From the NCBI GenBank assembly GCA_903844645.1, contig CAIMUP010000013.1, forward strand, positions 1,428 to 65,427: a stretch of DNA of 64,000 bases, given 5' to 3'. Origin of the DNA: an uncultured Bacteroidota bacterium (GTDB taxonomy: Bacteria; Bacteroidota; Bacteroidia; AKYH767-A; JABDAW01). Shown piece by piece: positions 1,851-62,242 of this stretch. Numbering within the stretch: position 1 is the stretch's first letter; each line of letters starts with the position of its first letter. The position numbers and the translations under genes were made by a program. A model generated the notes under the pieces. It had not been told where the DNA came from and ran no database searches. It saw only the letters and a program-made list of their open reading frames with translations.

Positions 1851-2047
1851 CAAATGATTATTAGCGGAGCTCGAATAGGTATTAGAGGAGCTCAAATGGT
1901 TATTAGAGGAGCTCGAATAGGTATTAGAGGAGTTCGAATAGGTATTAGAGGAGTTCGAATAGGTATTAGAGGAGCTCTAATAGGTATTAGAGGAGCTCAA
2001 ATAGGTATTGGAAGAGCTCAAATAGGTATTAGAGGAGCTCAAATTCC
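1851..2047. repeat. Array A: 21-bp tandem repeat, about 9.4 copies
   Basis: The unit is cgaataggtattagaggagct. Unit starts were hand-indexed at 1851, 1872, 1893 ... 2019. It lies between the TBDR stop (1791) and the DUF4249 start (2078). Confidence 0.95.
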
Positions 2048-2077
2048 ATCAATTTGTATTAATAAATTAGCTGTATC

Positions 2078-2974
2078 ATGAAAAAACTACTCTTTCTCCT
2101 TGCCCTGATTCCATTCATCTTTATCGGTTGCGAGAAAGATATTGCCGTGAATTTCCCGCCGCCACCCGATTTATTGGTCATCGAAGGGCACATCGAGCCG
2201 GGCGGATTTGCCTACGTTCACGTTACGCGGAATGCCAATTATTTCGCCTCCACGAATACCGATTCGCTGTTGCAATACCTCGTTACGGATGCCATCGTGG
2301 TAGTTTCTGATGGGATATTAATGGATACTTTGAAACAGACATTCGCCCCGTATTTGGACCCTTATTTCCCTGCTCCGGTGATTTATCTGGGGCAATTAAT
2401 CATCGGGCAACCGAACCATACCTACACACTGAAAGTCATTGCCAACGGGCAAACAGTTACCGCCACGACCTCCATCCCCGGGCTTGTACCGCTCGATAGT
2501 ACCTGGTTTAAGGTGGAGAATAACCTCGACAGTTTGGGATATGTTTACGGACACATGCACGACCCCGATTCCTTGGGCAATGCCTACCGGTTTATGATCA
2601 AACGGATTGGGCATTTCTCCGATGGCAAGCAGAAGGATTTGGGATTTATTGCCGATGTGAATTCGGTATTTGATGATAAAGTAATTAATGGGCAGAGCTT
2701 TGATGGCGACTTCAACCGTCCACATCTGCCGCATGATACCTCGGTCGAGAATCACAATATCGAGAATGGATATTTCAAGAAAGGCGATACCATCGTCCTG
2801 AAATGGATGACCCTCGACCACGATCATTACAAGTTCTGGCAAACCGAAGGTATCGCCGCCAATGGCGCGGATAATCCCTTCGCCTCCCCGACCATTATCA
2901 AGAGTAATATCAAAGGCGGCTTAGGTATTTGGGGAGGCTATGGCACGACCTATGACACGATTATTGCGAAATAA
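2078..2974 (+). CDS. DUF4249-like lipoprotein, the usual partner of a Bacteroidota TonB-dependent receptor
   Basis: It has a lipoprotein signal (MKKLLFLLALIPFIFIGC). Its size and position directly after a TBDR fit the family. The family assignment is from memory, not a search. Confidence 0.6.
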   Translation: MKKLLFLLALIPFIFIGCEKDIAVNFPPPPDLLVIEGHIEPGGFAYVHVTRNANYFASTNTDSLLQYLVTDAIVVVSDGILMDTLKQTFAPYLDPYFPAPVIYLGQLIIGQPNHTYTLKVIANGQTVTATTSIPGLVPLDSTWFKVENNLDSLGYVYGHMHDPDSLGNAYRFMIKRIGHFSDGKQKDLGFIADVNSVFDDKVINGQSFDGDFNRPHLPHDTSVENHNIENGYFKKGDTIVLKWMTLDHDHYKFWQTEGIAANGADNPFASPTIIKSNIKGGLGIWGGYGTTYDTIIAK

Positions 2975-2983
2975 AAGATAACT

Positions 2984-3919
2984 ATGGAAGAAAAAGTAAA
3001 ATGTTTAATCATCGGCTCGGGTCCTGCGGGATATACAGCCGCTATTTATGCCGCCAGAGCCGATATGAAACCCGTGCTTTATCAGGGTTTGCAGCCTGGC
3101 GGTCAATTAACCATCACTACCGAAGTAGAGAACTATCCGGGCTACCCCAAGGGCACTATGGGTCCGGAGATGATGGAGGATTTCAAAGCCCAAGCCGAAC
3201 GATTCGGGACAGATATTCGATGGGGATATGCCACCTCGGTGGATTTCTCTGGTGCAGTTCATAAAGTTATTATTGATGAAACCACGACCATCTTCGCCGA
3301 TACGGTAATCATCGCAACCGGTGCTTCTGCCAAGTGGCTCGGATTGGAATCCGAACAACGACTGAATGGTTTCGGGGTATCGGCATGTGCCGTCTGCGAT
3401 GGTTTCTTTTTCAAGAAGCAAGATGTCGCCATCGTTGGTGCCGGAGATACCGCTGCCGAAGAAGCTACTTACCTCGCCAAGCTATGCAACAAGGTGTATA
3501 TGATTATTCGTCGTGATGAGATGCGAGCTTCCAAAGCCATGCAACATCGCGTGCAGAATACTGCCAACATCGAAATTATTTATAACTCCGAAACCAAAGA
3601 AATCCTTGGCGAGAAGACCGTAGAAGCCGTCTTGGTTTATGATATTAAGAACAAGGTAGAGCGGAAACTCGATGTTACTGGCTTCTTCGTCGCGATAGGT
3701 CATCAGCCCAACACCGATTTATTCAAAGGCATCCTCGACATGGATGAAAACGGCTATTTAATCACCATTCCCGGCACTACCAAAACCAATGTCGGAGGCA
3801 TTTTTGCTGCAGGCGATGTCGCTGACCATGTGTATCGCCAAGCCGTTACCGCAGCCGGAACCGGATGTATGGCAGCCATAGATGCCGAAAGATATTTAGC
3901 CGCCAAAGGCATCCATTAA
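2984..3919 (+). CDS. trxB: thioredoxin-disulfide reductase
   Basis: It has the FAD motif GSGPAGYTAAIYAARA, the redox-active CAVCDG and the NADPH motif GAGDTAAEEA, at a typical 311 aa. Confidence 0.95.
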   Translation: MEEKVKCLIIGSGPAGYTAAIYAARADMKPVLYQGLQPGGQLTITTEVENYPGYPKGTMGPEMMEDFKAQAERFGTDIRWGYATSVDFSGAVHKVIIDETTTIFADTVIIATGASAKWLGLESEQRLNGFGVSACAVCDGFFFKKQDVAIVGAGDTAAEEATYLAKLCNKVYMIIRRDEMRASKAMQHRVQNTANIEIIYNSETKEILGEKTVEAVLVYDIKNKVERKLDVTGFFVAIGHQPNTDLFKGILDMDENGYLITIPGTTKTNVGGIFAAGDVADHVYRQAVTAAGTGCMAAIDAERYLAAKGIH

Positions 3920-4042
3920 AAGGGGTAAAATAAATTTTGATTAGATAGCTCGCCTGCCGATCTCCTGAATGTTTTTTCTCATTACAAATTTCCTTTTCTT
4001 GTATTTTTTCGAGTTCCCCGAGGAATGAAATTTCTTTAATCG

Positions 4043-4345
4043 AGGCATTAGGAAAAAAAGCAGGGCATCAAATTACCCAATTTCATACCTTAAGTTTTTG
4101 CTCAAGGCATCACATTACCCGATGTGTGGGGTTGAGCAAAAACTTAATGCTTCACATCATCCAATTTGGAGGTATGGGAAAAAAAGTAATGCCCCACATT
4201 ACCCGATTTTGGGGTATGGCAAAAAACCTAATGCCCCACATTACCCAATGTGATGGTATGGCAAAAAACCTAATGCCCCACCTTACCCAATGCGGGGGTA
4301 TGAGCAAAAAAGTAGTGCCTCACATTACCTAATGTGGGGGTGTGA
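4043..4345. repeat. Array B: 42-bp tandem repeat, about 7 copies, each with an internal hairpin
   Basis: The unit is gccccacattacccaatgtgatggtatggcaaaaaacctaat. The anchor gc(a/c/t)(t/c)cac falls at 4065, 4107, 4149, 4191, 4233, 4275 and 4317, a spacing of exactly 42. Each unit contains the dyad cacatt-accc-aatgtg. Confidence 0.95.
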
Positions 4346-4551
4346 TTTTCAATACATTCAAATATAAAATAAGAATCTCTAAAAATAGCCTCCAAGGTAG
4401 TGATCAAATAGAGCAATCAAAATAAAATAAAAAAATGATTAAATAAAATAATGAAAATTATGATAGACTTCGCAAAGTATTTTTTAATCCTTTTTATGAT
4501 AAATTCATTTACCGGGATAAATTGAAGCAATTTACCGAGGAAGGAGGTATT

Positions 4552-6018: not shown

Positions 6019-6058
6019 TGTTTTTTTATAAGATGAGCAAAGAAACATAAAAGTATGG

Positions 6059-6066
6059 TAATTTTG
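6059..6066 (+). promoter_or_regulatory. candidate Bacteroidota-type -7 box (TAnnTTTG) for the decarboxylase gene
   Basis: The sequence taattttg lies 21 nt upstream of the ATG at 6087. Confidence 0.35.
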
Positions 6067-6086
6067 CAACCTGAATCAAAGAAATC

Positions 6087-7532: not shown

Positions 7533-7570
7533 AGCCTTTACATCTTCACGACCATTATTAAATAAAAAAA

Positions 7571-7596
7571 AGTGGCATTTTTTTATGCCGCTTTAT
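7571..7596 (+). terminator. possible rho-independent terminator after the decarboxylase gene
   Basis: The stem agtggcat/atgccgct (one G-U pair) has a T-rich loop and a T-rich tail. Confidence 0.4.
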
Positions 7597-7639
7597 AAAT
7601 ATTTCTTTGATAGAAGTTGGTAAAGTGAGAAATTATTAG

Positions 7640-7647
7640 TAGTTTTG
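7640..7647 (+). promoter_or_regulatory. candidate -7 box (TAnnTTTG) for the T9SS cargo gene at 7672
   Basis: The box reads tagttttg, with a TTG at 7617-7619 about 20 nt upstream. Confidence 0.35.
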
Positions 7648-7671
7648 TGCGCTCAAATAAAAAACACATAG

Positions 7672-8652
7672 ATGAAAAACTCCCACCTACTCTTTTTCTT
7701 TTTTCTTTTTATAATCGGAAAGCCAATGATTGCGCAGAATCTTGTTCCGAACCCAAGTTTCGAGTTACATGATAGCTGCCCTGATAATGAAGACCAAATA
7801 CAAAGAGCAATAGGATGGTCTAAATACAGTAATATTGCTTCTACTCCTGATTATTATAATGCCTGTGATACTGGTGGACAGTTATGCGTGCCACCAGTTA
7901 ATGGGGGATTTACTCAATCATCAGCACATAGTGGTCATGCTTATGGAGCAGTTGTAACATTTGCTAAACAAATTCATAATTATCGTGAGTATATCGGTAT
8001 ACAATTATCTCAATCTTTAACTATTGGTCAGGATTATTTTCTCTCCTTTTATACAACCACTGGAGAAGTATGGGGTTTAGGAATGCCTTCAAATAATCTT
8101 GGTATTCGTTTATCAACTGTTGCTTTTAATCCAAATAATCCAACTCCAATTAATAATTATGCTCATTTATATTCTTCGGCAATTATTAGTGATACCATAA
8201 ACTGGGTACATGTTTCCGGAACAATAACAGCAGATTCGACTTATCATTATTTGGTAATTGGTAATTTCTTTACTGATAGCCTCACGGACACGATTTGCTG
8301 GCGACAGACAAATTCATTAGAATGTTATTATGCAGTTGACGATATTTGCATTACACCTGCTGCTGATTCAATGATATGTATGGAGTTCACTTCAGTTGAT
8401 GAAATAAAATTTCCCGAGGATATTAATGTATTTCCAAATCCGGCAACTGATTTTGTAAATATCGTTTTCGATGAAAATCAAGAAACGGAAATTATATTAT
8501 TTGATATGTTAGGGAATACGATTTACAAGAATCTAATTACAAATAAGAGCGCAAGATTATGTATATCTGCTATTCCGCGTGGATGTTATGAATTAAAAAT
8601 TACCAGCAAGAGAGATTATAAAACTTATATAAAAAAAATTGTTAAACTATAA
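7672..8652 (+). CDS. secreted protein with a T9SS type A C-terminal sorting domain
   Basis: It has a signal peptide, an N-terminal LVPNPSFE motif and a C-terminal VFPNPATDFVNIVF...YELKI block typical of Por/T9SS CTDs. Confidence 0.7.
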   Translation: MKNSHLLFFFFLFIIGKPMIAQNLVPNPSFELHDSCPDNEDQIQRAIGWSKYSNIASTPDYYNACDTGGQLCVPPVNGGFTQSSAHSGHAYGAVVTFAKQIHNYREYIGIQLSQSLTIGQDYFLSFYTTTGEVWGLGMPSNNLGIRLSTVAFNPNNPTPINNYAHLYSSAIISDTINWVHVSGTITADSTYHYLVIGNFFTDSLTDTICWRQTNSLECYYAVDDICITPAADSMICMEFTSVDEIKFPEDINVFPNPATDFVNIVFDENQETEIILFDMLGNTIYKNLITNKSARLCISAIPRGCYELKITSKRDYKTYIKKIVKL

Positions 8653-8718
8653 AAAAATAAAATGAAAAACTATTGCTTTCGGTTTAGGAAAAATGCAGGG
8701 CGGTTTAGCTTTTATATT

Positions 8719-8926
8719 GACCTGTTTAAAGTTTATGTCGGTCTGTTTAAAGTTTGTATCGGTCTGTTTAAAGTTTAAACAGGTCTGTTTAAAGTTTGTA
8801 TCGGTCTGTTTAAAGTTTAAACAGGTCTGTTTAAAGTTTAAACAGGTCTGTTTAAAGTTTGTATCGGTCTGTTTAAAGTTTAAACAGACCTGTTTAAAAT
8901 TTGTACAGACCTGTTTAAAAACTATA
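8719..8926. repeat. Array C: 21-bp tandem repeat, about 10 copies, two alternating variants
   Basis: The units are ggtctgtttaaagtttgtatc and ggtctgtttaaagtttaaaca, starting at 8719, 8740 ... 8908. Junctions of the b-type variant create the 9-bp inverted repeat tttaaacag-gt-ctgtttaaa. Confidence 0.95.
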
Positions 8927-9076: not shown

Positions 9077-9712
9077 ATGTCTAACCTACTACCAGGCACA
9101 CCGATAAAAGCAAGTCGCAAATTCATGACTTTCGGAAGAGTAAAGCTTATTGCTGAATATGAATTAGTGAAAACGGGAATGACCAGTCCTGCCGGCATCG
9201 GTCATTATGCAAATCCTACGGTTGCATTCGCCACCATGGACCCTATCAAGCAGGCAATTACTGATGCCTATAACTTAAAAGATAAGGTAACGATGCGGGC
9301 AAGGATCAAGGATTTGAAAGATGACATGCGCAAGAACGCGACTTTTGCTGAAGAACATTGTAACAACGACCTCGCCACGTTGTTATTGAGCGGTTACAAA
9401 GAAGCTCAACAGGGTGGTGGTCCTGAAATAGCCATTGGCGGCACTACTAATTTGAAAGCTGGCGATACAGGAATTGTTGGCGAAATGAAAGGAACTTACA
9501 GAAGACCAGCTGGAACGAAACATGTCGAGGGATGGAGCAAGTTACACAGTGCTCCGGAAACTGCCTGGGCATTGACTGCTGTGACAGATGTCGGAGAAAT
9601 CTTCTGGACAGGCGTAGCGAAAGGTGTGGAAAACGATTACAAAGTTCGTAGTGGTGCCGGTCGCAGAAAAGGTGCATTCAGTTCGGTAGTTACCGAGATT
9701 TGCAGGTATTAA
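9077..9712 (+). CDS. orphan protein P1 (array-fronted, unknown function)
   Basis: This 211-aa ORF has no signal peptide, a helical N-terminal half and a beta-rich C-terminal half. It is preceded by array C and followed by a hairpin terminator. Confidence 0.6.
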   Translation: MSNLLPGTPIKASRKFMTFGRVKLIAEYELVKTGMTSPAGIGHYANPTVAFATMDPIKQAITDAYNLKDKVTMRARIKDLKDDMRKNATFAEEHCNNDLATLLLSGYKEAQQGGGPEIAIGGTTNLKAGDTGIVGEMKGTYRRPAGTKHVEGWSKLHSAPETAWALTAVTDVGEIFWTGVAKGVENDYKVRSGAGRRKGAFSSVVTEICRY

Positions 9713-9735
9713 TTTAAGAATTAAATAAACAGGAA

Positions 9736-10356: not shown

Positions 10357-10362
10357 TTGGAA

Positions 10363-15334: not shown

Positions 15335-15546
15335 GATGGTGGCAAAGAAAGGAAATTCGTGGGGCAGGGATGGAAAACTTTTTTTTCAGAGAATTGTATT
15401 TCTCCACTATTTTTAGTATCATTGCAACCTCGAACAAAAAATGAAGCCTCAAAACACATATAATAATCTCGCAAATCTCTCCAATAATTTTGGAGGTGGG
15501 GCTTGCATATTAAATAGAGTTTGTGTAAACTCGAAGCCGCCTCAAT

Positions 15547-15577
<31 letters not shown>

Positions 15578-15658
15578 CAAATTTTTTGAAATAACCAAAT
15601 CGGAGAACACTTTTTCTGGTTCGGTTCAAAAAATTTCGTTTTCCTTTTCTAATCTTTC

Positions 15659-15951
15659 ATTAAAGTTTCCAAAAATTTCCGCGATTTTTCAGGAATCTTG
15701 GTCAAGTCGCCAGAGTTTTGACCAAAGTTTCATACGCCCCAGCCAAAGTGTGCCGAACTTCAGCCAAAGTTTTGGAAACTTTGACCAAAGTCCAGCGACT
15801 TTGACCAAAGTAGATGAAGATTCGGTTGAGGTTTCTGAAACTTTGACCAAAGTGGGCTTCACCGTGGTCAAAGTTTCTGCTTTCTCGCCCAAAGTTTCCG
15901 GAAATTCCTCCAAAGTTTCCCAAAAATCCCCCAAAGTTTCTGAAACTTCGG
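15659..15951. repeat. Array D: degenerate 21-bp-phased array with conserved core CCAAAGT(TT)
   Basis: Core starts fall at 15722, 15743, 15764, 15785, 15805, 15847, 15868, 15889, 15910 and 15931, giving spacings of 21,21,21,20,42,21,21,21,21. The sequence between cores is variable. Confidence 0.85.
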
Positions 15952-16076
15952 GACCTGTAGGAAGAATATTGGCTGTAAATCAGTCCATTTCTTTCCTGAC
16001 TTCGATTTTCGAGGTCCTTTTACAAAATCCCGCTAACGGAATCCAAATAGAAATTTAATAACTTAATAAATAAACT

Positions 16077-16778
16077 ATGATCATAAATTACAGAGGTCCT
16101 TACAAAGCGGCTACGCTTGACGGGCAAATTGACCAAATCCGAATCATCGGAGTAAAAATGGGAACGTACAAATTAACGTTGGACCTTCTCCAACCGAACA
16201 TTGACCGGGTGAACAACACCTACCTGATGCTTAAATATGTCGATGGCTGCGAAAACAGCGTGGACGGCTACAAAAAAAATCTGAACGATTACAAGCATGA
16301 ATTGTTGAGCGGCGACAAGGCGCATCAGATGAATGCGTTCCCCGTGATGGAGGCGTTTGCCACCGCCCCTGCCGCTACCAAAGGCGGTATTTGGCATTTT
16401 ATCGAAAGCCAACGGAGCATCATGATGGAGCATGATAATTGGACGGACGGCATCGGCGAAGACATGCACCTTTTAGGTCCGATGCGCCAGTTGGATTCTA
16501 ACCTTTATGTGCCCGAAGTGAGGCTGAAAGTGCGAGCCGGAGTTATCGAAGCGATTACCGATTCGGCGATTATCACGAATCATAAACTCTATGTCGGACC
16601 GCAAGGCATTGACCCGATTCCGTTTATCACCGATTTTAAAGGTGCTAAATACGAATATCACCGCACCATCGCGCCCCCGACGACTTCCGAAAAGCTGAAT
16701 GTAATGATTCGCGGCATGTTCGATAATGAAATTATAGGGCACGATTCGGCAATCGTACAGATAGCTTATAAAGGATAA
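16077..16778 (+). CDS. orphan protein P2 (array-fronted, unknown function)
   Basis: This 233-aa ORF has no signal peptide and is preceded by degenerate array D. The start could instead be the internal Met (MGTYKL). Confidence 0.6.
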   Translation: MIINYRGPYKAATLDGQIDQIRIIGVKMGTYKLTLDLLQPNIDRVNNTYLMLKYVDGCENSVDGYKKNLNDYKHELLSGDKAHQMNAFPVMEAFATAPAATKGGIWHFIESQRSIMMEHDNWTDGIGEDMHLLGPMRQLDSNLYVPEVRLKVRAGVIEAITDSAIITNHKLYVGPQGIDPIPFITDFKGAKYEYHRTIAPPTTSEKLNVMIRGMFDNEIIGHDSAIVQIAYKG

Positions 16779-16782
16779 TCTG

Positions 16783-28646: not shown

Positions 28647-28850
28647 TTCACCCTTTTGAGGGATTGTTTTAGGAACTAATACCTTGTAATTTTGCATCCT
28701 TAATTACAAACAATGGATCATTACAATCACATAGCGAATACAACGGATAGCAATCACGACAGAGGCAATGCTTCTGGAAGGTTTTTCAATGGTGGCGGTA
28801 GTGATATGGATACAAATTGTAGTTTAAACATATGCCAAAAAAACTCAAAC

Positions 28851-29102
28851 ATATCTTTTAGTAACAATAAGATACCTTTTAGTAACAATAAGATACCTTT
28901 TAGTAACAATAAGATACCTTTTAGTAACAATAAGATACCTTTTAGTAACATAAAGATATGTTTTAGTAACAAAAAGATACCTTTTAGTAACAAAAAGATA
29001 CCTTTTAGTAACAAAAAGATACCTTTTAGTAACAAAAAGATATGTTTTAGTAACAAAAAGATACCTTTTAGTAACAATAAGATATGTTTTAGTTTTTCTC
29101 AC
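28851..29102. repeat. Array E: 21-bp tandem repeat, about 12 copies
   Basis: The unit is ataccttttagtaacaataag, with variants atatg... and ...aaaaag. Starts fall at 28851, 28872 ... 29082. Confidence 0.95.
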
Positions 29103-29205: not shown

Positions 29206-29973
29206 ATGAGTCTATTAAAATTAGTATTAGTAAAAATTTCTATCTTCATGATCATCACGAAGGCTTCCATCATGAGGCAGTACCTTTTAGATTGTGTCAG
29301 TGCGGGTTCTGCCTCCACTTTGTATGCCAATCCGGCTATTACCACTGCCTTTTATACCTCGATGACGAATGCTGCGGCTGCCATTCAGACAGCGGTAACA
29401 GTTTGTGCGGCGAACAACACGAAGGCAAACAGGGATGCCATTAAAGATGCTATCGCAGCAGGAAAAGTGGTCGCGGCAAGCTATGCTTCGCAAGTTCAGG
29501 TGATTGCCAATCTCCCTATTAATGCCGCTACCCGCGAGGCAGCAAAGACAAATATTGAACAATCGCATCTGACGGCACAAAAATTAAATCAAACAACCAT
29601 AGGAATACCCGAAACCCCTGTATTAACGGGCGAAAATAACGGCATCGGCAAGATAAAAGTAAAGGTTACCAATCCTGGCGTATCGTATGACCCTAAAACT
29701 ATTATTTTTGTTGCTGTTTCCCTGCCCATAGTGCCTGTAACGGTGCCGCCAACACCTCCTCCGGCTGACCCCGTAGTTACGCTCATAGCAGGACAAGTGA
29801 TGGTAAAGACTTCCGTGGCATGCGAAGTGATAACCATCACCCAGGATGGCAAAGGAAGAGAGGTAGATTTGGTTGGATTGACTGCCGGCACTCGCTTTTC
29901 CATCTCTGCCTACACAAAAAATGGCAATAAATTGGTGAGCGTATTGTCGAACGCTATTATCGTACAGGCATAA
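29206..29973 (+). CDS. orphan protein P3 (array-fronted, unknown function)
   Basis: This 255-aa ORF has an Ala-rich helical N-terminal half, a Pro-rich linker (PVTVPPTPPPADP) and a beta-rich Ig/Fn3-like C-terminus. It shares a weak N-terminal motif with P1 (KAS..., YANP...AF). Confidence 0.6.
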   Translation: MSLLKLVLVKISIFMIITKASIMRQYLLDCVSAGSASTLYANPAITTAFYTSMTNAAAAIQTAVTVCAANNTKANRDAIKDAIAAGKVVAASYASQVQVIANLPINAATREAAKTNIEQSHLTAQKLNQTTIGIPETPVLTGENNGIGKIKVKVTNPGVSYDPKTIIFVAVSLPIVPVTVPPTPPPADPVVTLIAGQVMVKTSVACEVITITQDGKGREVDLVGLTAGTRFSISAYTKNGNKLVSVLSNAIIVQA

Positions 29974-30044
29974 AAGGCGGAAAAGGATACTTTCAGGAAA
30001 TTTTGTATCTTTGCCACGAATAAATTGATACTAAAGCTGCCGCA

Positions 30045-30272
30045 ATGAGAAAAATAACCTTAGAGTTACCTGATTCTGTTGAATTAAATGACCAAGAAGT
30101 GGCATTATTAGTAGCCGCAAGTTTCTATGAACATGGAAAACTTTCATTAGGACAAGCCGCCGAACTGGTAGGTCTATCCAAACGGGCTTTTATGGAAGTA
30201 TTGGGCAAGTATGGAGTATCTATATTTAATTATCCTGCCTCCGACCTGTCGAGAGATGTAAAGAATGCATAA
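30045..30272 (+). CDS. UPF0175-family antitoxin-like protein
   Basis: This 75-aa protein has the motif GKLSLGQAAELVGLSKRAFMEVLGKYGV, and its stop overlaps the start of the next gene by 8 nt. Confidence 0.75.
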   Translation: MRKITLELPDSVELNDQEVALLVAASFYEHGKLSLGQAAELVGLSKRAFMEVLGKYGVSIFNYPASDLSRDVKNA

Positions 30273-34682: not shown

Positions 34683-34864
34683 GTACACGTGTACAATTCG
34701 TCCTGCAACTGTGTCGGAGGCAATGTTCGGTGTACTTTGCCCCAACACAGTTGTGTTTGCCAATTCTACATGTGTACTATTGGCAAACACAGTTACTTTT
34801 GCAGAAGTACACGTGTAGAATTGGCAAACACAACTGTGTTTGCCAAATGTACACGTGTACATTC
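34683..34864. repeat. Array F: roughly 42-bp tandem repeat, about 4.3 copies, built from two alternating palindromes
   Basis: It alternates GTACACGTGTAC (12-bp palindrome at 34683, 34807, 34849; degenerate at 34725, 34766) with AATTGGCAAACACA-ACTGTGTTTGCCAAAT (30-bp palindrome). The dyad centres are 21 bp apart. Confidence 0.9.
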
Positions 34865-37869: not shown

Positions 37870-37908
37870 AAGCCCTCCCGACATAAAATTGGGAGGGCTT
37901 CTTTTTTT
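37870..37908 (+). terminator. rho-independent terminator after the YfhO-like gene
   Basis: The 10-bp GC-rich stem aagccctccc / gggagggctt is followed by cttttttt. Confidence 0.8.
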
Positions 37909-37950
37909 AGCTAAAAGGACGATTTGGGAAGCCCGAAAAATTTTTCCGCT

Positions 37951-38202
37951 ATGAATATCTTTTGCTTCGGGATGAATATCCTTTGCTTCGGGATGAATAT
38001 CCTTTGCTTCGGGATGAATATCCTTTGCTTCGGGGTGAATATCTTTTGCTTCGGGGTGAATATCTTTTGCTTCGGGATGAATATCCTTTGCTTCGGGATG
38101 AATATCCTTTGCTTCGGGATGAATATCTTTTGCTTCGGGATGAATATCTTTTGCATCGGGATGAATATCTTTTCATCCGGCTTCAATACATTTTCATCCC
38201 GG
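37951..38202. repeat. Array G: 21-bp tandem repeat, 12 copies
   Basis: The unit is atgaatatcctttgcttcggg. Starts fall at 37951, 37972 ... 38182. It lies between the terminator at 37870-37908 and the ppiC-type gene at 38399. Confidence 0.95.
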
Positions 38203-38358
38203 GTTAATGTCTTACATGAACTTTTCCCCGTTATAAAACCCGATTTGGAGGGGTAAAAAGGGAGGTTTTTGGAAATTCTCCACCCTCCATTTCCCACTTT
38301 TAAGTCTCCATTCCCCATTTTCCATTCCCCATTCTTTTTCCATTGTCAGGAAATTTTA

Positions 38359-41277: not shown

Positions 41278-41445
41278 TATTAAATACGACTACAATGATG
41301 CCGTCATCTCCTACAATGATAGCGTCATCTACTACAATTATGCCGTCATCTACTACAATTATGCCGTCATCTACTACAATGATGGCGTCATCTACTACAA
41401 TTATGCCGTCATCTACTACAATGATGGCAACTTCGACTACACATT
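41278..41445. repeat. Array H: 21-bp tandem repeat, 8 copies
   Basis: The unit is tgccgtcatctactacaatta. Starts fall at 41278, 41299 ... 41425. The array ends 15 bp before the surA-like ATG (41460). Confidence 0.95.
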
Positions 41446-42848: not shown

Positions 42849-43817
42849 ATGGATATAAAATTTAACTCCGATGTAGAAGCAGTGGATTCCCTGGTGGGGA
42901 CTTACAAGGACCTTCGCAAAGAAATTGGGAAAGTGATTATCGGGCAAGACGATATTGTGAAGGATGTGCTGATCTCTATCTTCGGGCAGGGACATTGCTT
43001 GCTGGTGGGTGTGCCGGGCTTGGCGAAGACGCTGTTGGTGAATACGATTGCGCAGACGTTAGGCTTGACGTATAACCGGATTCAGTTTACGCCTGACTTG
43101 ATGCCGAGTGATATTATCGGGACGGAAATATTGGATGAAACTCGTAAGTTTCGGTTTATTAAAGGACCGTTGTTTGCGAATATTATCCTTGCCGATGAGA
43201 TTAACAGAACTCCACCAAAGACTCAGTCGGCGTTGTTGGAGGCGATGCAGGAACGGACTGTTACTGCTGCCGGAACGCGGTATGATTTGGGGAAGCCGTT
43301 CTTTGTGTTGGCGACGCAAAACCCGATTGAGCAGGAGGGGACTTACCCGTTGCCGGAGGCGCAATTGGATAGGTTTATGTTTAATGTGTGGTTGGATTAT
43401 CCAAAATTTGAGGAGGAGATACAGGTGGTGAAGAATACGACCTCGAATTATAAACCGGAGTTAAAAGTTATTATTCATGGGGAAGAGATTGTGTATTTTC
43501 AGGACTTGGTGAGGAGGATTCCTATTGCGGATAATGTGTTGAATTATGCGGTAACCTTGGCGCAGAAGAGCAGACCGAATACGGCATTGGCTACGGAGAT
43601 GGTGAATACTTATCTGTCGTGGGGTGCTGGTCCGAGGGCTTCGCAGTATTTGGTGATTGGGGCGAAGGTGAACGCGATATTCAATGGGAAATATTCTCCT
43701 GATATTGAGGATGTGCAGGCGGTGGCGGCGGGTATTCTGCGGCATCGTATTGTATTAAATTATAAGGCGGAAGCTGAACGGGTTTCGGTGGAGAGCATTG
43801 TTAAAAGCCTTATTTAA
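42849..43817 (+). CDS. MoxR-family AAA+ ATPase
   Basis: It has Walker A GVPGLAKT and Walker B ILADEINR, at 322 aa. Confidence 0.9.
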   Translation: MDIKFNSDVEAVDSLVGTYKDLRKEIGKVIIGQDDIVKDVLISIFGQGHCLLVGVPGLAKTLLVNTIAQTLGLTYNRIQFTPDLMPSDIIGTEILDETRKFRFIKGPLFANIILADEINRTPPKTQSALLEAMQERTVTAAGTRYDLGKPFFVLATQNPIEQEGTYPLPEAQLDRFMFNVWLDYPKFEEEIQVVKNTTSNYKPELKVIIHGEEIVYFQDLVRRIPIADNVLNYAVTLAQKSRPNTALATEMVNTYLSWGAGPRASQYLVIGAKVNAIFNGKYSPDIEDVQAVAAGILRHRIVLNYKAEAERVSVESIVKSLI

Positions 43818-43868
43818 GAGAAGAATCCGGGGGATTCAAATCAGTTTTTGGTGTCTGGAGCAGTTTAA

Positions 43869-44162
43869 CGGCTGTTGATTGGAGAAAGTCGGCTGTTGAT
43901 TGGGGAAAGTTGACTGTTGATTGGGGAAAGTCGGCTGTTGATTGGGGAAAGTCGGCTGTTGATTGGGGAAAGTTGACTGTTGATTGGGGAAAGTCGGCTG
44001 TTGATTGGGGAAAGTCGGCTGTTGATTGGGGAAACATGGACGTAGATTGGGGAAACATGGACGTAGATTGCGGAAACATGGACGTAGATTGGGGAAACAT
44101 GGAGGTAGATTGTAGAAACATGGAGGTAGATTGCAGAAACATGGAGGTAGATGGGTTTTACA
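43869..44162. repeat. Array I: 21-bp tandem repeat, 14 copies in two subfamilies
   Basis: It has 8 units of (c/t)g(g/a)ctgttgattggggaaagt, arranged cgg,cgg,tga in a 63-bp higher order. Six units of tgga(c/g)gtagattgnngaaaca follow. Starts fall at 43869 ... 44142. Confidence 0.95.
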
Positions 44163-44323
44163 CTTAAAATGCCAATAATTTTAATACAAAATGCTTTGTT
44201 TTTTCTACTTTTCATTTAATTATATCAAAAAAAGCAAAACAATTTCTCCGAAAATTTGGCAGTTACAAGAAATTTTAGTTAATTTGCATCCATAATCTAA
44301 AAGATAGACTTAAAATAACAAAA

Positions 44324-45259
44324 ATGAATCACAGAGAACTCGCACAAATGGAAAGAAACGGAGGACTGTTTACGTTCCTCGCCTTGGCTTCGAGCCATAC
44401 AATTTATGACTCCAATGGCAACTTCGTCATTGAAAGGGATGGACAAGCCGCGAAACATGTTATTACGCTTGACAAAGCCTCGAAAGCGGGGATTGACAAT
44501 AAAGGTTTTAGCGCAGATAAATTGGAAAAGAAAAACCTTTTGGCGGATGAAGCAGCGTTGCTTTCGGGCTACGCATTCGTGAAATGGGGTCCTACTAAAT
44601 TGAACAAACCAGCCTTTGCTTTACAATGCCACACGTTTGCTACGGATTATTTAGGAATTGCCGATGTTGAATGTACCGCTCTTGCACAAGCTGCTCACGA
44701 TTTGATGTTCAATAATAGCGGCGACCTGACGGGTTATGTAGCCGCGGGGGATTTGACACATTTGCAAACAACGATCAACAACTTTACGGCTGCTGACGGC
44801 TCTTCGCAATCGGTGAATGCGGCATCGCCAGCGGATACGGCAGCATTTAAAACGGCATTGAGAAACGAAAATAAGTGTATTCCTGACCTCTTATTTATGG
44901 TGCGACCTTTTAAAACGATTAATAAAACTTTCTACGATAAAGTGGTTCTGTTGTGTGAATTGCCTGCCGTTTCAGTCTTACATACCGATGTGATCGTTAC
45001 GGTTTTGAAGACGGAAAATAATGAGGTGATAACGGATGCGCATGGGACACTTTCGAACACTAAAAAGACGGACGATACGGATATTCATGGGGAATTGGAA
45101 ATAGATGAAGTACATTCTGGCAAAGCCATCTTGACGATTACGCAACCGGATCGGGTAACGATTGTGGAAGAGATAACGATTCAAATAAAGCATGTGAATC
45201 ATTATACGGTACACATGACGCTGAAACCGGTGCCTCCGCCGATACCTCCGGTGGTTTAA
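44324..45259 (+). CDS. orphan protein P4 (array-fronted, unknown function)
   Basis: This 311-aa ORF has no signal peptide, a beta-rich C-terminal third and a Pro-rich tail (KPVPPPIPPVV). It is preceded by array I and followed by two hairpins. Confidence 0.6.
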   Translation: MNHRELAQMERNGGLFTFLALASSHTIYDSNGNFVIERDGQAAKHVITLDKASKAGIDNKGFSADKLEKKNLLADEAALLSGYAFVKWGPTKLNKPAFALQCHTFATDYLGIADVECTALAQAAHDLMFNNSGDLTGYVAAGDLTHLQTTINNFTAADGSSQSVNAASPADTAAFKTALRNENKCIPDLLFMVRPFKTINKTFYDKVVLLCELPAVSVLHTDVIVTVLKTENNEVITDAHGTLSNTKKTDDTDIHGELEIDEVHSGKAILTITQPDRVTIVEEITIQIKHVNHYTVHMTLKPVPPPIPPVV

Positions 45260-49508: not shown

Positions 49509-49913
49509 ATGCATAAAAACCAGGAATCATTCTCTATTAAAAAGCGATTCAACAGCTTCGGATATGCCTTCAACGGCATTAAAATATTATTCAGAACCGA
49601 ACACAATACTTGGCTACATTTATTCGCTACGGTGGCGGTACTTGCGGCAGGATTTTTCTTCCATATTTCGGTTTTGAGTTGGTTTATGCTCGTTGTCGCC
49701 ATTGCTTTGGTTTGGATTACGGAGGCATTAAATACTGCCATCGAATACCTCGTTGATTTGGTTTCTCCCGAGTACCATCCCTTAGCTAAAAAAACGAAGG
49801 ATATTGCGGCAGCGGCGGTGTTCATCGCCTCCTTTTTTGCATTCATATTAGGAATAATAATAGTGTATCACGAGTGGATTTTACACTATCAAACCATTTG
49901 TTTAGGGCTTTGA
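49509..49913 (+). CDS. dgkA: diacylglycerol kinase family (DgkA-like) small membrane kinase
   Basis: It has three TM segments and the conserved EALNTAIEYLVD motif. The start was taken at the ATG one codon after the TTG of the ORF track. Confidence 0.8.
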   Translation: MHKNQESFSIKKRFNSFGYAFNGIKILFRTEHNTWLHLFATVAVLAAGFFFHISVLSWFMLVVAIALVWITEALNTAIEYLVDLVSPEYHPLAKKTKDIAAAAVFIASFFAFILGIIIVYHEWILHYQTICLGL

Positions 49914-49926
49914 AAAGGGAAAAAAG

Positions 49927-50162
49927 CCGACCGGATTTGGGAAAGATGCGGTCGGATATTTCCTTTCTCCGGTCGGATATTTCTTTTTTCCGGTCGGATA
50001 TTTCTTTTTTCCGGTCGGATATTTCTTTTTTCCGGTCGGATATTTCTTTTTTCCGGTCGGATATTTCCTTTTTCCGGTCGGAGATTTCTTTTTTCCGGTC
50101 GGAGATTTCCTGTTTCCGGTCGGAGATTTCCTTTTTCCGGTCGGATATTTCCCGTTACCGAC
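49927..50162. repeat. Array J: 21-bp tandem repeat, about 11 copies
   Basis: The unit is ccggtcggatatttctttttt. The anchor ggtcgga falls at 49950, 49971, 49992 ... 50139. It lies between dgkA and the alpha-oxoamine synthase gene. Confidence 0.95.
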
Positions 50163-50299
50163 CATTAATTTTTGGCTGATTAACGGAAGAAAATATATCT
50201 TTGACCCCTTACCAAAAAAATGAAGCCGCAAAAAGCGATTCCGAAGGACATAAAATGAATGAAACAAAACATAATAGTAAACTTAAAACAGACAGATAA

Positions 50300-51691
<1,392 letters not shown>

Positions 51692-51721
51692 ATCCCAAAT
51701 AACCTTAATAATGATATAATT

Positions 51722-54368: not shown

Positions 54369-54558
54369 CCGTCATCATATATGAAAACGGACAATCGTAA
54401 TAGTTATTATTGTATTAACTATTGTAATTATTGCTTTAGCAATAGTAAATATGACCATAACGATACCTTGGGCGATATTTTCTATCGTTACTGCAATAAT
54501 AACATATGTAAAAGGTATCCTTAGGATACCAATTATACGTTTTCATATATGATGACGG
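54369..54558. repeat. perfect 21-nt inverted repeat pair flanking 148 bp
   Basis: The sequence ccgtcatcatatatgaaaacg (54369-54389) has its exact reverse complement cgttttcatatatgatgacgg at 54538-54558. Confidence 0.9.
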
Positions 54559-54579
54559 ACGAAAAGGATAGTAAAAGCT

Positions 54580-54748
54580 GTTATCACGATAGTTATTGTT
54601 GTTATCACAATGGTAAAAGCGGTTATCACAATAGTTATTGCTGTTATCACAATAGTTATTGTAGTTATCACAATAGTTATTGCAGCTATTACAATTGTAA
54701 AAGCAGTTATTATAATAGCTATAACAGTATTCACGATAGCGATGACAA
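54580..54748. repeat. Array L: 21-bp tandem repeat, 8 copies
   Basis: The unit is gttatcacaatagttattgct. Starts fall at 54580, 54601 ... 54727. Related, degenerate reverse-orientation copies lie at about 54390-54450. Confidence 0.85.
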
Positions 54749-54978
54749 AAACTGTAAGTACATTCATTAGTAATACCATATAAATAGCACAATAGATGAA
54801 GAAATTAAAGGTAAAACGGATGGTTTATATCAGGATTAATGATGTCCCTGACACCCGAATGGTGATTCTTTCCATGTTCCTGACAGGTTTTTTCACCTGA
54901 TAGGTTTTGAGAATTGGAATTCCTATCGTTTCATCAGGTTTTGGGATTACAATTTGGAGGGAAAGGCTTCCTTTTTTA

Positions 54979-55500: not shown

Positions 55501-55609
55501 GAATAATTTGGTTAGCTTGGTTCGTATTTTGAATGGTAAAACGGGGCTTGGCTATGGATTAGTATTTAATTTTATTAAATAAATACCGCCCCCTGATAAG
55601 AATATTTTA

Positions 55610-57781: not shown

Positions 57782-58026
57782 ATAATTTGGGGCGAAATTA
57801 GTATAATTAAGGATAATAATATGATGAAGTATTTGATAAAAATAAGGATGACAAAAGGAATGCTACACGACAAATTATTTTTTCATAAACTTCAGATTCA
57901 TCTACTAAATGACTACAATTTTTATCTAATAATTTGGAGAATTAATGCCTGCAAAACGGAACAAATTAAGAGCATAAAAATGTGGCTTCTTTGGAATAAA
58001 ATTCTGAATAAGAGGGATTCCGACTC

Positions 58027-58152
58027 GGCTGCGAATGATTTCGTCGTGACTGCGACTATTTTCATCATGACTGCGACCATTTCCGACTAGATTGCGACTA
58101 TTTTCATCGTGACTGCGACCATTTCCGACTAGATTGCGACCATTTTCATCGG
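58027..58152. repeat. Array M: 21-bp tandem repeat, 6 copies with a 42-bp higher order
   Basis: The units gactgcgaccatttccgacta and gattgcgactattttcatcgt alternate. Starts fall at 58027 (degenerate), 58048, 58069, 58090, 58111 and 58132. Confidence 0.9.
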
Positions 58153-58436
58153 AAATCCTCCTATGCATGTTTTGCTTATACCAATCAACACTTTAGCTAC
58201 TTCTCAGGGCATCAAAACAGGGTTAAAACGACCAAAAACAGACTAAAAGAGGATTAAAAAGACTATTCGCGGCATGATAAAAAAAGTCCTTCTCCAACAA
58301 AGTATTTGAGACCGAAACGACGAAGAAAAGGACATCCCTCGAAACTTAACGATCCCGAATTATATCCCCATCAAGCACCCTCGGACAGGGCAAAAGTTGC
58401 CTAAATTATGGGGTGCTAAAATTACTTTTAAGAAGA

Positions 58437-60386: not shown

Positions 60387-60431
60387 AAGTTATTTGTTAT
60401 TGAAGGGGACAAAATTAAAGATTATCGGTGA

Positions 60432-61655
60432 TTACTTCTCACCTTCTAAATCATGCCCCATTTTATCCCGTTTCGTGTTGAGATAATCCTTGTTATGGAT
60501 GTTCGATTTTATTGCAATCGGTACGTTTTCCACGATCTCCAGACCATATCCTATCAAGCCCGCTCGCTTCGTCGGGTTATTCGACATTAATTTCATTTTC
60601 GTTACGCCCAAATTCCTTAATATTTGAGCACCCACCCCGTAATCCCTTTCATCCATCTTGAACCCGAGAGCAATATTTGCCTCCACCGTATCCATTCCTT
60701 CTTCTTGCAGTTTGTATGCCCTTAATTTATTCAACAATCCGATGCCCCTTCCCTCTTGATTGATGTAAACTAAAACCCCTTTCCCGGCTTCTTCAATCAT
60801 CTTCAAGGCTCTATGAAGTTGAGGTCCGCAATCGCAGCGGCAACTCCCGAAAATATCACCGGTAAGGCATGACGAATGTACCCTTACCAACACCGCTTCG
60901 TCCTTCTCCCATGTGCCTTTGATGATAGCAAGGTGCTCTTGATCGGTGTTGATTTGTTTGTAAGCGATTAACTTAAAATCGCCCCAGGCTGTCGGCAAAT
61001 TCACCGTTACTTCCTTCTCAATAAGGCTCTCTTTCGAGAGGCGGTATTTGATTAAATCCTCTATCGAAATTATCTTCAAATCGAATCGTTCGGCTATCTT
61101 GAAAAGGTTCGGCAGACGCGCCATCGTACCGTCTTCATTCATTATTTCTACCAGCACTCCCGCCGCTTCGAAGCCGGCTAAGGATGAAATATCAACCGTT
61201 GCTTCCGTATGTCCGGCTCTTCTTAAAACACCGCCATGCTTTGCTTTCAAAGGGAAAATATGTCCCGGTCTGCCCAGATCTTTTGGCATGGTTTCAGGAT
61301 TAATTAAAGCCTGAATCGTCTTGCTTCTATCGCTTGCCGAGATGCCTGTCGTGCAGCCATGTCCCAACAAATCCACCGAGATGGTGAATGGTGTTTCATG
61401 CGACGAGGTGTTCTTCGTAACCATCATATCTAATGCCAATTCCGCGCACCGTTCTTCGGTAATCGAGGCACAAATCAAGCCTCTGCCGTGGGTCGCCATA
61501 AAGTTCACAATATCAGGCGTCGCGTTGCGGGCAGCAGTTACGAAGTCGCCCTCGTTTTCGCGGTCCTCATCATCCACTACGATGATTACTTTACCTTGCC
61601 TGATGTCTTCCAGAGCCTCTTCGATGGTATTTAATTTATGTTGTACGATGTTCAT
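60432..61655 (-). CDS. ribBA: bifunctional 3,4-dihydroxy-2-butanone-4-phosphate synthase / GTP cyclohydrolase II
   Basis: The RibB half has [10 protein letters not shown] and HTEA. The RibA half has [15 protein letters not shown] and NQEGRGIGL. Confidence 0.95.
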
Positions 61656-61929
61656 GGCGTGTTTTTTAATTCTATGGCGGCGAAATTAAGAAAATTGTTG
61701 GCGTTCGATTATCCGTTCTCGATCATTCGCAATCTTTATCCAAAGATACGTTTTCTCTCATCAAAAAATACTCGGATTGGTACCAAGAAAAGCATCATGC
61801 AGATACCTTCTCTCGGTATTCATTCAGGGAATCGCGATCTGTTGGTTCAAAGACTCGTTTCTTATACACAATACTGCCTCTGTTGTATTCCATTCAGCCT
61901 CCTTTTAGCTGCTAATCGCGATTCTGAAG

Positions 61930-62242
61930 CCAAAAGTCGAGATATTGAAACAATGAATCGTACCCATTAACCACTTAATTGAAGTGAAAGACTATTTTAG
62001 TATAATGAATGACTCATTAAGTATAATGAAAGACTATTTTAGTATAATGAATGACTAAAACACTAATATGAAAGACTAATTACCAGACATGAAAGACCAC
62101 TTCATGTCTGGCAATTAGTCTTTCATATTAGTGAATTAGTCTTTTACCTTAATAAAGTAGTTAATCATTATACTAAAATAGTCTTTCACTTCAATTAAGT
62201 GGTTAATGGGTACGATTCATTGTTTCAAGGTCTCGACTTGGA
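61930..62242. repeat. Element N: roughly 313-bp nested imperfect palindrome built from the GAAAGAC motif on a 21/42-bp lattice
   Basis: The outer arms match over about 65 bp perfectly (61945-62009 vs 62165-62229), with imperfect extension to 61930 and 62242. The inner 33-bp stem (62061-62094 / 62101-62133) has one mismatch. GAAAGAC starts at 61986, 62028, 62070 and 62091, and GTCTTT(C/T) starts at 62118, 62139 and 62181. Confidence 0.9.

Follow-up and report, generated by a model that had tools for sequence, protein, structure and literature searches.

Tandem Arrays in the Window

The window, i.e., the whole analyzed stretch of 64,000 nucleotides, is part of an ordinary Bacteroidota chromosome. 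All tandem arrays found in it (A to N) are located between Pfam-supported genes, and array K overlaps just the final codons of one ORF. TRF applied to the whole window together with lag autocorrelation revealed 11 clean 21-bp arrays (A, C, E, G, H, I, J, K, L, M, and N). When all gaps of 100 bp or longer were autocorrelated, lag 21 ranked first in 11 of them with a match fraction of 0.40–0.71. Lag 42 ranked first in gap B and, narrowly, in gap C (0.60 vs. 0.59 for lag 21). The array-free gaps showed no comparable lag signal. When each array is laid on a 21-nt ruler, the anchor motifs hold fixed columns. TRF, autocorrelation and ruler agree, and the 21-bp arrays reported by the first-pass annotation are therefore real.

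The combined array length was counted as approximately 3.19 kb, which equals 5.0% of the window and confirms the previous estimate of about 5%. By gene map, 13 of the 17 gaps of at least 150 bp contain an array; with array D this becomes approximately 14 of 18 long gaps. A fourth array-free long gap (29974–30264) was missing from the exceptions given previously. Co-directional, convergent, divergent and operon-internal gaps all hold arrays.

According to TRF, nearly all arrays have 0% indels, and several show higher-order periods of 42, 63 or 84 bp. Across about 140 in-register units only two register shifts were found, compared to an indel-to-substitution ratio of about 0.05 in adjacent non-array DNA; this test of indel deficit is biased, as an indel may itself set the apparent end of an array. 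One register is kept across diverged sub-arrays in L and I, and old, decayed arrays still retain theirs. The proposed exact lattice is valid for 11 arrays and was slightly overstated for D (two 20-nt steps), F (weak, 41–42 bp) and B.

The arrays are not an assembly artefact, since they are present in independent assemblies. Array H is identical in L083, which was assembled independently from short reads of the same population and was scaffolded with 100 N inside G. Breaks of independent contigs fall within C, E, and I.

Individual Arrays and Elements

Array A (1851..2044) consists of about nine copies of the 21-bp unit TATTAGAGGAGCTCAAATAGG (TRF: 1859–2044, 8.9 copies, 90% matches). It lies between an OMP gene and a DUF4249 gene, both on the plus strand, and ends 33 nt ahead of the next ATG. 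Array B (4043..4341) has a 42-bp unit in about 5.5 copies (TRF: period 42 at 4111–4341) plus two degenerate copies upstream; there is no 21-bp sub-period (r21 = 0.25), and a hairpin is found within the unit. It occupies the convergent gap between TrxB (+) and SSF (−). In array C (8711..8919), TRF identified 10.0 copies of 21 bp and a 63-bp higher-order repeat. The unit type C1 (TTTAAACAGGTCTGTTTAAAG) forms an almost perfect dyad, and one contig (L081) begins inside the array.

Array D (15641..15953) is a decayed 21-bp array with the anchor CCAAAGT, which is not exactly locked to the lattice because of two 20-nt slips. It is situated in a low-complexity ORF (15441–16058) that pipelines call as a gene and that is probably none. 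The same ORF contains an (AC)14 microsatellite at 15547–15574.

Array E (28847..29093) comprises 11.8 copies of AAAGATACCTTTTAGTAACAA with a period of 21 bp (TRF), and two independent contigs terminate inside it. Element F (34683..34861) is composed of about three to four copies of 41–42 bp (TRF: period 41 at 34744–34861, 2.8 copies). Its unit consists of two strong palindromes (fold z about −8), and the element may be a separate hairpin-type repeat. The 12.5 copies of the 21-bp unit ATGAATATCTTTTGCTTCGGG in array G (37951..38213; TRF) are located 3′ of an intrinsic terminator (37870–37900) and upstream of the −7-like motif TAGTTTTG. Array H (41289..41435) fills the hyp-SurA operon gap with about seven copies of 21 bp and a 63-bp higher-order repeat (TRF: 41289–41426, 6.6 copies); its edges carry a direct microhomology of 8 nt (CGACTACA), 21 nt apart.

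Array I (43869..44152; TRF) has about 13 units of 21 bp in two sub-families, which have the common core GATTGGGGAAA and a single register. For array J (49949..50161), about 10 copies of the 21-bp unit CGGTCGGATATTTCCTTTTTC were determined (TRF: 49949–50152, 9.7 copies), and all six reading frames are open. Array K (51490..51699) also contains about 10 copies of 21 bp, with a 42-bp higher-order repeat (TRF: 51563–51690, 6.1 copies). On the left, degenerate units extend over the final codons and stop codon of an aminotransferase ORF (50300–51544); the array ends 31 nt ahead of the next ATG. Array L (54401..54737) sits in a convergent gap and is formed by two related 21-bp sub-arrays (TRF: 54399–54452 and 54568–54722) in the same register despite a diverged middle. 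Array M (58018..58151) is flanked by two minus-strand genes and shows about six copies of 21 bp with 42- and 63-bp higher-order repeats (TRF). Element N (61934..62239; TRF: period 21 at 61985–62200) is a large inverted repeat of lattice units. Its arms (61934–62058 and 62115–62239; 125 nt each, 86% complementary) are made of 21/42-bp units with TGAAAGACT.

Properties of the Repeat Units

No k-mer was common to the units of the 14 arrays beyond shuffled expectation. The best 4-mer, AAAG, occurred in 9 of 14 arrays, and the 95th percentile of the null maximum was 10. In an all-against-all blastn of the gaps no common flanks were detected, only marginal matches of 11–37 nt. These results support the earlier view that the period and not the sequence is the conserved property, and within the window no common dispersed family was found that matches the units. 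Within units, variable positions are clustered and leave a conserved core of about 11–14 bp (Fisher p about 7e-4, a value inflated through the amplification of higher-order units).

F, C1, and B are markedly self-complementary, mutually unrelated and able to form strong hairpins. Most 21-nt units showed no excess self-complementarity on either strand (z about −1.8 to +1.9), which weakens a reading as structured RNA. The arrays had no Rfam match, and the unit orientation relative to the flanking genes is inconsistent.

The in-phase repeat of any 21-mer is predicted to give a coherent bend of about 18–21 degrees per unit. Compared to random 21-mers, the units were not more bent (p = 0.03 in one model and 0.2 in the other). 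Selection of the units for intrinsic bend is thereby weakened, as far as these bend models predict.

The arrays are non-coding. In Pfam scans of 50 ORFs, including all larger ones, no Rep, Par, transposase, integrase, RT or Cas domain was found, in line with the first-pass annotation, which had noted no Rep, Par, transposase or RT gene.

Period and Turnover in Related Genomes

Arrays with a period of at least 10 and at least four copies were counted in the clade and in other Bacteroidota. In the clade, 157 kb from six non-redundant loci contain 22 arrays, of which 21 have period 21 and one has period 42; periods of 15, 18, 20, 22, 24, and 27 are absent. In 2.32 Mb of other Bacteroidota loci, none of the 11 arrays has period 21. 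The period-21 excess is far above chance, and the enrichment predicted from the window is borne out in relatives (21 of 22 vs. 0 of 11).

The arrays are not conserved at orthologous gaps, as unit and gap differ among close relatives. The hyp-SurA gap, which measures 208 nt with array H here, is only 12–13 nt long in relatives. In the MoxR-SmpB gap, loci L089 and L173 carry one unit family and L171 an unrelated one, all three arrays lying about 100 nt upstream of smpB. Relatives with 87–95% MoxR identity have different units, family sharing being restricted to L089 and L173, and a relative with 81% MoxR identity has no array in 21 kb. Between two populations with flanks 99.4–99.8% identical, the copy number was 12 vs. 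15, a difference of exactly three whole units.

The arrays thus turn over fast, and come and go within a clade of at least 87% MoxR identity to the window. Because they are not conserved at orthologous gaps, a reading as locus-specific regulators is weakened. The same non-conservation fits neutrality and a global role equally.

Comparison With Known Repeat Systems

CRISPR does not apply, as stated in the first-pass annotation: the copies are head-to-tail without spacers, and no Cas domains occur among the scanned ORFs. Its distinction from REP/BIME palindromes and from heptameric STRR also stands. No single palindrome family recurs across the gaps; only F, C1, and B are self-complementary and these are unrelated, F alone being a possible hairpin-type repeat. 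The units are 21 nt long, which, together with housekeeping neighbours, separates them from simple-sequence contingency loci (units of 1–8 nt in or upstream of surface or virulence genes, whose expression they switch), although the copy number does vary.

Plasmid iterons (17–22 bp) and sopC (43 bp × 12) are similar in that directly repeated units spanning about two or four turns of the helix put the bound protein on one face. With iterons and centromere-like arrays, each replicon has just one such locus, with a uniform unit sequence and next to its cognate Rep or ParB gene. This pattern does not fit the window, where 64 kb contain 14 loci whose units are unrelated and where no Rep or Par domain was found among the scanned ORFs. 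The mycobacterial MIRU, homologous units of about 46–100 bp with small coupled ORFs, are likewise tandem minisatellites in operon gaps with copy-number polymorphism between strains; here, in contrast, the units are unrelated and have no coding signal.

BrickBuilt of Porphyromonas gingivalis, a minisatellite-MITE with a tandem unit of about 23 nt, also has a Bacteroidota host, is always intergenic, lacks spacers and occurs at many loci per genome (PMC4596501). All its copies belong to a single sequence family, bear inverted-repeat ends and have conserved leader and tail subunits, which marks BrickBuilt as a mobile element (PMC4596501). A MITE-borne minisatellite of this type was rejected for the window, where each array has its own unit and the gaps show only the marginal blastn matches mentioned above. 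The arrays of Borg extrachromosomal elements resemble the present ones in that they are pervasive, sequence-unrelated and of independent origin, evolve rapidly, vary in unit number within populations and have flanking partial repeats that suggest local seeding (PMC9879509). Their unit lengths are variable (14–38% of the intergenic ones are divisible by three), about half of the repeats lie inside ORFs, and the units are perfect, A-rich copies (PMC9879509), whereas the arrays described here, with a single period and partly diverged units, belong to a bacterial chromosome and are only intergenic.

The arrays belong to a published class of constant-size, variable-sequence repeats and are very dense here. 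For non-coding bacterial repeats, a constant size of 20–21 nt with variable sequence has already been described (Subirana and Messeguer, J Bacteriol 2020;202:e00229-20, as cited in PMC8161180), so that the novelty implied by the first-pass annotation is not supported. From the account in PMC8161180, the remark on two helical turns and the small-RNA and nucleoid ideas are already part of that work. According to the same account, the class and the present arrays have in common that they are non-coding tandem arrays of at least four copies, with one length of 20–21 nt per genome and many unrelated units, species-specific families and related repeats of about 40–41 nt.

The present data agree in each of these respects. 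The 21-nt length is dominant in the clade, the ORFs over the arrays are of low complexity without a coding signal, several families without k-mer or cross-gap similarity coexist, and relatives carry different units. A short species-wide motif inside the units, reported for 'many species' such as some Bacillus but no requirement of the class as outlined in PMC8161180, was not found here, the frequency of AAAG being within the null. The differences concern the host, an uncultured Bacteroidota clade (PMC8161180 does not mention Bacteroidetes), the period, which is exactly 21 for all 21 arrays compared to 20–21 or 20–23 in the published class as given there, and the density. About 140 arrays per Mb were found for the clade and about 220 per Mb for the window; more than 4 per Mb was treated as high in reference genomes by the same authors (PMC6749651).

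Possible Origin and Role of the Arrays

The present results single out none of the functional candidates named in the first-pass annotation. As a tentative explanation, the arrays may be minisatellites that are driven by slippage and kept at a period of two helical turns through an architectural constraint. Part of it is that they are locally born, fast-evolving, non-coding minisatellites, each with its own unit. They grow and shrink by whole 21-bp units, which is read as slipped-strand mispairing or unequal exchange, also the source of the 42-, 63-, and 84-bp repeats. The seeds were probably born by microhomology slippage without a preferred length, so that the 21/42/63 lattice would reflect a constraint acting after birth, most likely helical phase.

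A competing and somewhat unlikely possibility is a mutational ruler, i.e., a clade-specific replication, repair or integrase-like activity that makes or amplifies exact 21-bp duplications, the arrays being functionless, neutral or selfish and persisting only between genes, where they are tolerated. The restriction of the trait to the clade (found at 87% MoxR identity or above but neither at 81% nor in 2.3 Mb of other Bacteroidota) would be expected from this, as would rapid birth and death in any kind of gap with neither sequence nor locus conserved, and units not enriched for bend, structure or motifs. However, the scanned ORFs have no transposase, integrase or RT domain, and TRF detected no two-copy duplication of 21 bp within the roughly 55 kb of coding sequence, although it would be in frame there. 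The microhomology of array H (CGACTACA) points to ordinary slippage, which has no length preference, and decayed old arrays retain their register. The same 20–21-nt size is reported from unrelated phyla in PMC8161180, and a ruler would consequently need many independent origins. Quite improbable is cis-regulatory tuning or contingency, in which the copy number sets the distance or UP-element-like context of the downstream promoter and the 21-bp step keeps upstream elements on one helical face. It could account for the copy-number polymorphism between populations, for A, G, I, and J upstream of −7-like TAnnTTTG motifs in co-directional gaps, for G between a terminator and the following promoter-like site, and for the arrays ahead of smpB. 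Yet convergent gaps are filled too (B, L), H and K end 31–33 nt from an ATG in operon-internal or short co-directional gaps, orthologous promoters have no conserved arrays, and the promoter motifs are consensus matches only. The neighbours (SurA, PPIase, SmpB, aminotransferase) are housekeeping genes, which is atypical for contingency.

Transcribed repeat RNAs, either small or architectural RNAs or 3′/5′-UTR modules of 21-nt units, appear very improbable. H and K have co-directional neighbours, stop 31–33 nt short of the next ATG and are therefore probably co-transcribed with the flanking genes, transcription is documented for the 52-nt repeats of Bacillus coagulans (PMC8625621), and strong hairpins are possible in F, C1, and B. 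Against this, most units lack excess self-complementarity, Rfam matches are missing for the arrays, the units are inconsistently oriented, G is located after a strong terminator, and the exact 21-nt period would be left without a reason. Short ORFs for heptad (7-residue) repeat peptides, 21 bp being seven codons, are barely credible. Several frames are open in many arrays, ORFs of 43–135 aa are predicted over them by gene callers, and K joins a real ORF in frame at its 3′ end, but the open frames are below chance, with about 2.5 per array compared to an estimated expectation of about 3.9 of 6. N is interrupted by stops in every one of the six frames, A and M have one open frame each, and in every open frame unit variants alter the amino acid. 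The ORFs covering D, E, and G and one beside L gave no Pfam match, and coding would also permit periods of 15, 18, 24, and 27, none of which occurs among the clade arrays.

Under the slippage explanation with a helical constraint, exactly two turns of B-DNA would place every unit on the same face, and any small bend would sum in one plane. An array could then serve as a curved or lattice-matched platform for a putative abundant architectural protein that recognizes shape or period and not sequence. A lattice of proteins spaced at a 21-bp pitch could choose the best register on any periodic sequence, which would explain the free unit sequence. The arrays would act globally, on nucleoid structure or topology, rather than as locus-specific regulators. 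The absence of 10–11 or 31–32 bp periods is not explained by helical phase alone.

What is new here is the evidence on turnover and whole-unit polymorphism. In an unlikely but wider reading, the lattice would be the footprint of a clade-specific DNA-organising system in Bacteroidota, either an abundant protein lattice or filament with a two-turn pitch, nucleating on whatever DNA matches its period, or a ruler machinery that duplicates or amplifies DNA in measures of 21 bp. Constant-size repeats of 20–21 nt and of 52 nt (about five turns) have been reported in other phyla (PMC8161180, Int J Mol Sci 2021, as outlined there), and such a filament or ruler system, if true, would also explain these.

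Period of the intergenic arrays

For the fourteen repeat arrays and elements in the intergenic gaps (A to N), the period was determined using TRF. A period of 21 bp was found for A, C, E, G, H, I, J, K, L, M and N and a period of 42 bp for B. F gave a weak period of 41, and D, a decayed array, includes two steps of 20 nt. The exact 21-bp (or 42-bp) lattice described in the first-pass annotation is slightly overstated for D, F and B. Indels were 0% in nearly all arrays, and higher-order periods of 42, 63 or 84 bp were detected in several of them. N was identified as a large inverted repeat assembled from lattice units.

The anchor motifs keep fixed columns when the arrays are printed on a 21-nt ruler. 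The best autocorrelation lag was 21 in 11 gaps and 42 in the gap of B, as well as, narrowly, in the gap of C, and no comparable lag signal was found in the array-free gaps. TRF, ruler and lag autocorrelation all confirm the proposed period-locked arrays. The summed array length is approximately 3.19 kb, which matches the earlier estimate of 5% of the window.

Two additional short repeats, one of 21 bp × 2.3 adjoining array G (38287-38334) and one of 23 bp × 2.3 overlapping the stop of the gene preceding C (8620-8673), may represent seeds or relics of further arrays. D is enclosed, together with an (AC)14 microsatellite, by a low-complexity ORF (15441-16058) which is probably not a gene. The microsatellite (15547-15574) is polymorphic, since it reads (AC)17 in L081, which was assembled independently from the same population.

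Array H is unchanged in a short-read scaffold assembled independently from the same population (99.9–100% identical). This scaffold contains a 100-N scaffold gap within G and ends within I, and another contig spans exactly from inside C to inside E. The arrays are real and not assembly artefacts.

Genomic context

According to Pfam scans of the larger ORFs, the window is an ordinary Bacteroidota chromosomal segment with a G+C content of about 41%. It encodes GyrA, EF-P, Ffh, TrxB, RibBA, SurA-type and PPIC-type rotamases, MoxR, a 2-oxoacid dehydrogenase E1 and an aminotransferase, and the type IX secretion markers Por_Secre_tail, CHU_C and SprB repeat indicate the phylum Bacteroidota. Rep, Par, transposase, integrase, reverse transcriptase and Cas domains were not found in these ORFs, in line with the first-pass annotation, which had listed no Rep, Par, transposase or reverse transcriptase gene.

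Among the matches listed from the species-representative genome collection, the nearest GyrA was only approximately 70% identical. Metagenome assemblies from ENA, NCBI and Logan contain proteins identical to the GyrA and MoxR of the window, on contigs of up to 126 kb.

The hypothetical genes directly downstream of C (9077-9712), D (16077-16778), E (29206-29973) and I (44324-45259) have no Pfam or NCBIfam match. They show no detectable mutual similarity, so a paralogous family downstream of the arrays was ruled out. For ribBA (60432-61655), an FMN riboswitch was not found at the Rfam gathering threshold; the gap upstream of this gene (61656-61930) is occupied by the large palindromic element N.

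Unit sequence, coding potential and structure

No shared motif above chance was found among the units when k-mers (k = 4–6) were compared with shuffled units. An all-against-all blastn of 18 gaps revealed no shared flanks, leader, tail or inverted-repeat ends; hence there is no common mobile-element shell, and a single mobile element family as the source of the arrays was ruled out. The conserved property is the period and not the sequence, as had been claimed.

In the six-frame analysis, open frames over the arrays were rarer than expected by chance, each of the six frames of N is interrupted by stops, and unit variants change the peptide in every open frame. Coding heptad repeats were rejected on these grounds, and the arrays are non-coding. 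ORFs of 43–135 aa overlie arrays in the window (28847-29093, 37911-38318, 43810-44215, 49874-50267 and 54436-54792) and in its relatives (L085 17667-17888; L176 546-725 and 13490-13804; L089 11238-11606). These ORFs consist of low-complexity heptad repeats and are most probably spurious; several have been annotated as genes in public assemblies. In practice, the arrays break short-read assemblies and seed such ORF calls in public annotations.

The folding energy of tandem units was compared with that of shuffled-unit tandems. Only F (z about −8), C1, one unit type of array C (about −3.5), and B (about −2.3) were unusually self-complementary. Rfam and tRNA scans gave no matches, and a structured RNA was set aside as a general property. 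In a wedge model (Bolshoy and AA-wedge parameters), a coherent bend of approximately 18–21 degrees per unit was predicted for any 21-mer. With the same parameters the real units were not clearly more bent than random 21-mers, and selection of the units for intrinsic bend was likewise set aside. Variable positions cluster within the units (p about 7e-4), leaving a core of 11–14 bp. This gives a weak indication of a conserved core and a variable linker, since the amplified higher-order units are not independent.

Distribution in related genomes

For the analysis of the distribution, a ladder of relatives was built from MoxR homologues and their contigs were fetched. Arrays of 21 bp with other unit sequences were found in every relative of at least 87% MoxR identity whose contig DNA was analyzed: three each in L085 and L176 (the 95% MoxR relative), one in L089, two in L173, and one, together with a 63-bp repeat, in L171. 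The 81% MoxR relative (L175) has no arrays within 21 kb. The onset of the trait appears to lie between MoxR identities of 81% and 87%.

Arrays with a period ≥10 and a copy number ≥4 were pooled. The 157 kb of clade DNA contain 22 arrays, 21 with period 21 and one with period 42. For comparison, 11 arrays were found in 2.32 Mb of loci from other Bacteroidota; their periods were 11, 12, 14, 16, 41, 72 and 76, and none was 21. The period enrichment expected from the first-pass annotation is thus present in the relatives. The matches listed in the GTDB scan (GyrA) and the JGI metagenome scan (MoxR) had at most 72% identity; these distant relatives were used solely as background.

Among weak TRF matches of about 2 copies in the background Bacteroidota loci, period 21 is over-represented (21 of 110 in L001-L080 and 12 of 66 in L091-L170), with counts of 1–3 each for periods 20, 22 and 23. 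These matches may be coiled-coil heptad coding repeats.

Three relatives (L089 11086-11170, L171 11086-11170 and L173 8250-8334) share a highly conserved element of approximately 85 nt located 3′ of MoxR. It reads GTACAAGAAAATTGGTTAGTAGATAACCAGTTTTGTTGGATGTGATGAGGGGAGTCGGTTTCATAGCCGGCTCCTTTTTTT, with a terminator-like hairpin at its end, and may be a small RNA gene. The window differs in synteny here and lacks the element.

Turnover of the arrays

The hyp-SurA gap, the site of array H, has a length of 12–13 nt in the 95% and 87% relatives and of 208 nt with array H in the window. At its boundaries, H has an 8-nt microhomology spaced by 21 nt, the signature of ordinary slippage. In the 90% MoxR relative (protein P0008 contigs) the same gap measures 231 nt, and a 66-aa ORF is called there in one of two contigs, suggesting a putative further array at this position. 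In the MoxR-SmpB gap, L089 and L173 share one unit family, with 6 and 10 copies, respectively, and L171 has an unrelated family.

Between two populations with flanks 99.4–99.8% identical, one array differs by exactly three units (12 versus 15). At least two events, of +42 and +21, account for this difference. Among approximately 140 in-register units, two register shifts were found, both in D, compared to about 13 expected, a test biased by how the array ends are defined. In the intergenic DNA of the clade outside the arrays, the ratio of indels to substitutions is about 0.05. These values suggest that the register is maintained, and the indel deficit was rejected as proof of selection on register because of the bias. 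The arrays are non-coding minisatellites of a restricted clade, with whole-unit expansion and contraction and rapid turnover.

Comparison with known repeats and possible origin of the period

The novelty implied by the first-pass annotation did not hold. The arrays are an exceptionally dense new case of the class of Subirana and Messeguer, tandem repeats with a fixed length of 20–21 nt and varying sequence, for which their 2021 papers describe non-coding, species-specific repeats with related 40–41 nt repeats alongside (PMC8161180). The window arrays share the defining features given there. They differ in host phylum, strict 21-bp period, density (approximately 140–220 arrays per Mb here) and the lack of the short motif which the papers report species-wide for some Bacillus; the present analysis adds evidence for turnover and polymorphism. 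In contrast to the unrelated units of the window, the P. gingivalis element BrickBuilt is a MITE of one family. Borg tandem repeats vary in unit length and are often within genes. Iterons, sopC, CRISPR, REP and MIRU each have at least one defining feature that the window arrays lack.

Seeds would arise via length-agnostic slippage, and the units lack a shared sequence, fold or coding signal. The restriction to a 21/42/63 lattice would therefore most likely reflect a helical-phase constraint, 21 bp being two turns of B-DNA. That two helical turns correspond to 20–21 nt was also remarked by Subirana and Messeguer (PMC8161180). With a bend predicted for any 21-mer, it would be the period and not the unit that creates the property, which favors curved or lattice-matched platforms for a protein reading shape or period and acting globally. 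This model-based reading is possible and tentatively preferred. The main rival, a functionless product of a clade-specific mutational ruler, is rather doubtful. Roles as small RNAs or in the nucleoid were suggested by the authors of the class (PMC8161180; PMC8625621; survey PMC6749651).

Promoter tuning or contingency is unlikely. Array gaps are of all kinds: they separate co-directional, convergent (B, L) or divergent genes (D, F), or lie within operons (H, K). G is located downstream of an intrinsic terminator, a strong one, and upstream of a −7-like motif that matches TAnnTTTG perfectly, such motifs also lie downstream of A, I and J, and the ends of H and K are 31–33 nt from the next ATG. 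Repeat RNAs would fit the folding of F, C1 and B, but only these fold unusually and the Rfam/tRNA scans were empty, which makes them quite improbable as an explanation. Heptad micro-ORFs are very improbable given open frames below chance and non-synonymous unit variants.

Period-locked, sequence-free repeats are among the few recurrent bacterial genome features without an accepted explanation. This lineage provides an unusually clean natural experiment, with about one-twentieth of the window in arrays, births in 12-nt sister-species gaps and whole-unit change between populations. The sharp phylogenetic on/off boundary and the clean lattice behavior make the question testable in the clade, and comparing gene content across the 81%–87% boundary could name a binding protein or a "ruler" enzyme.
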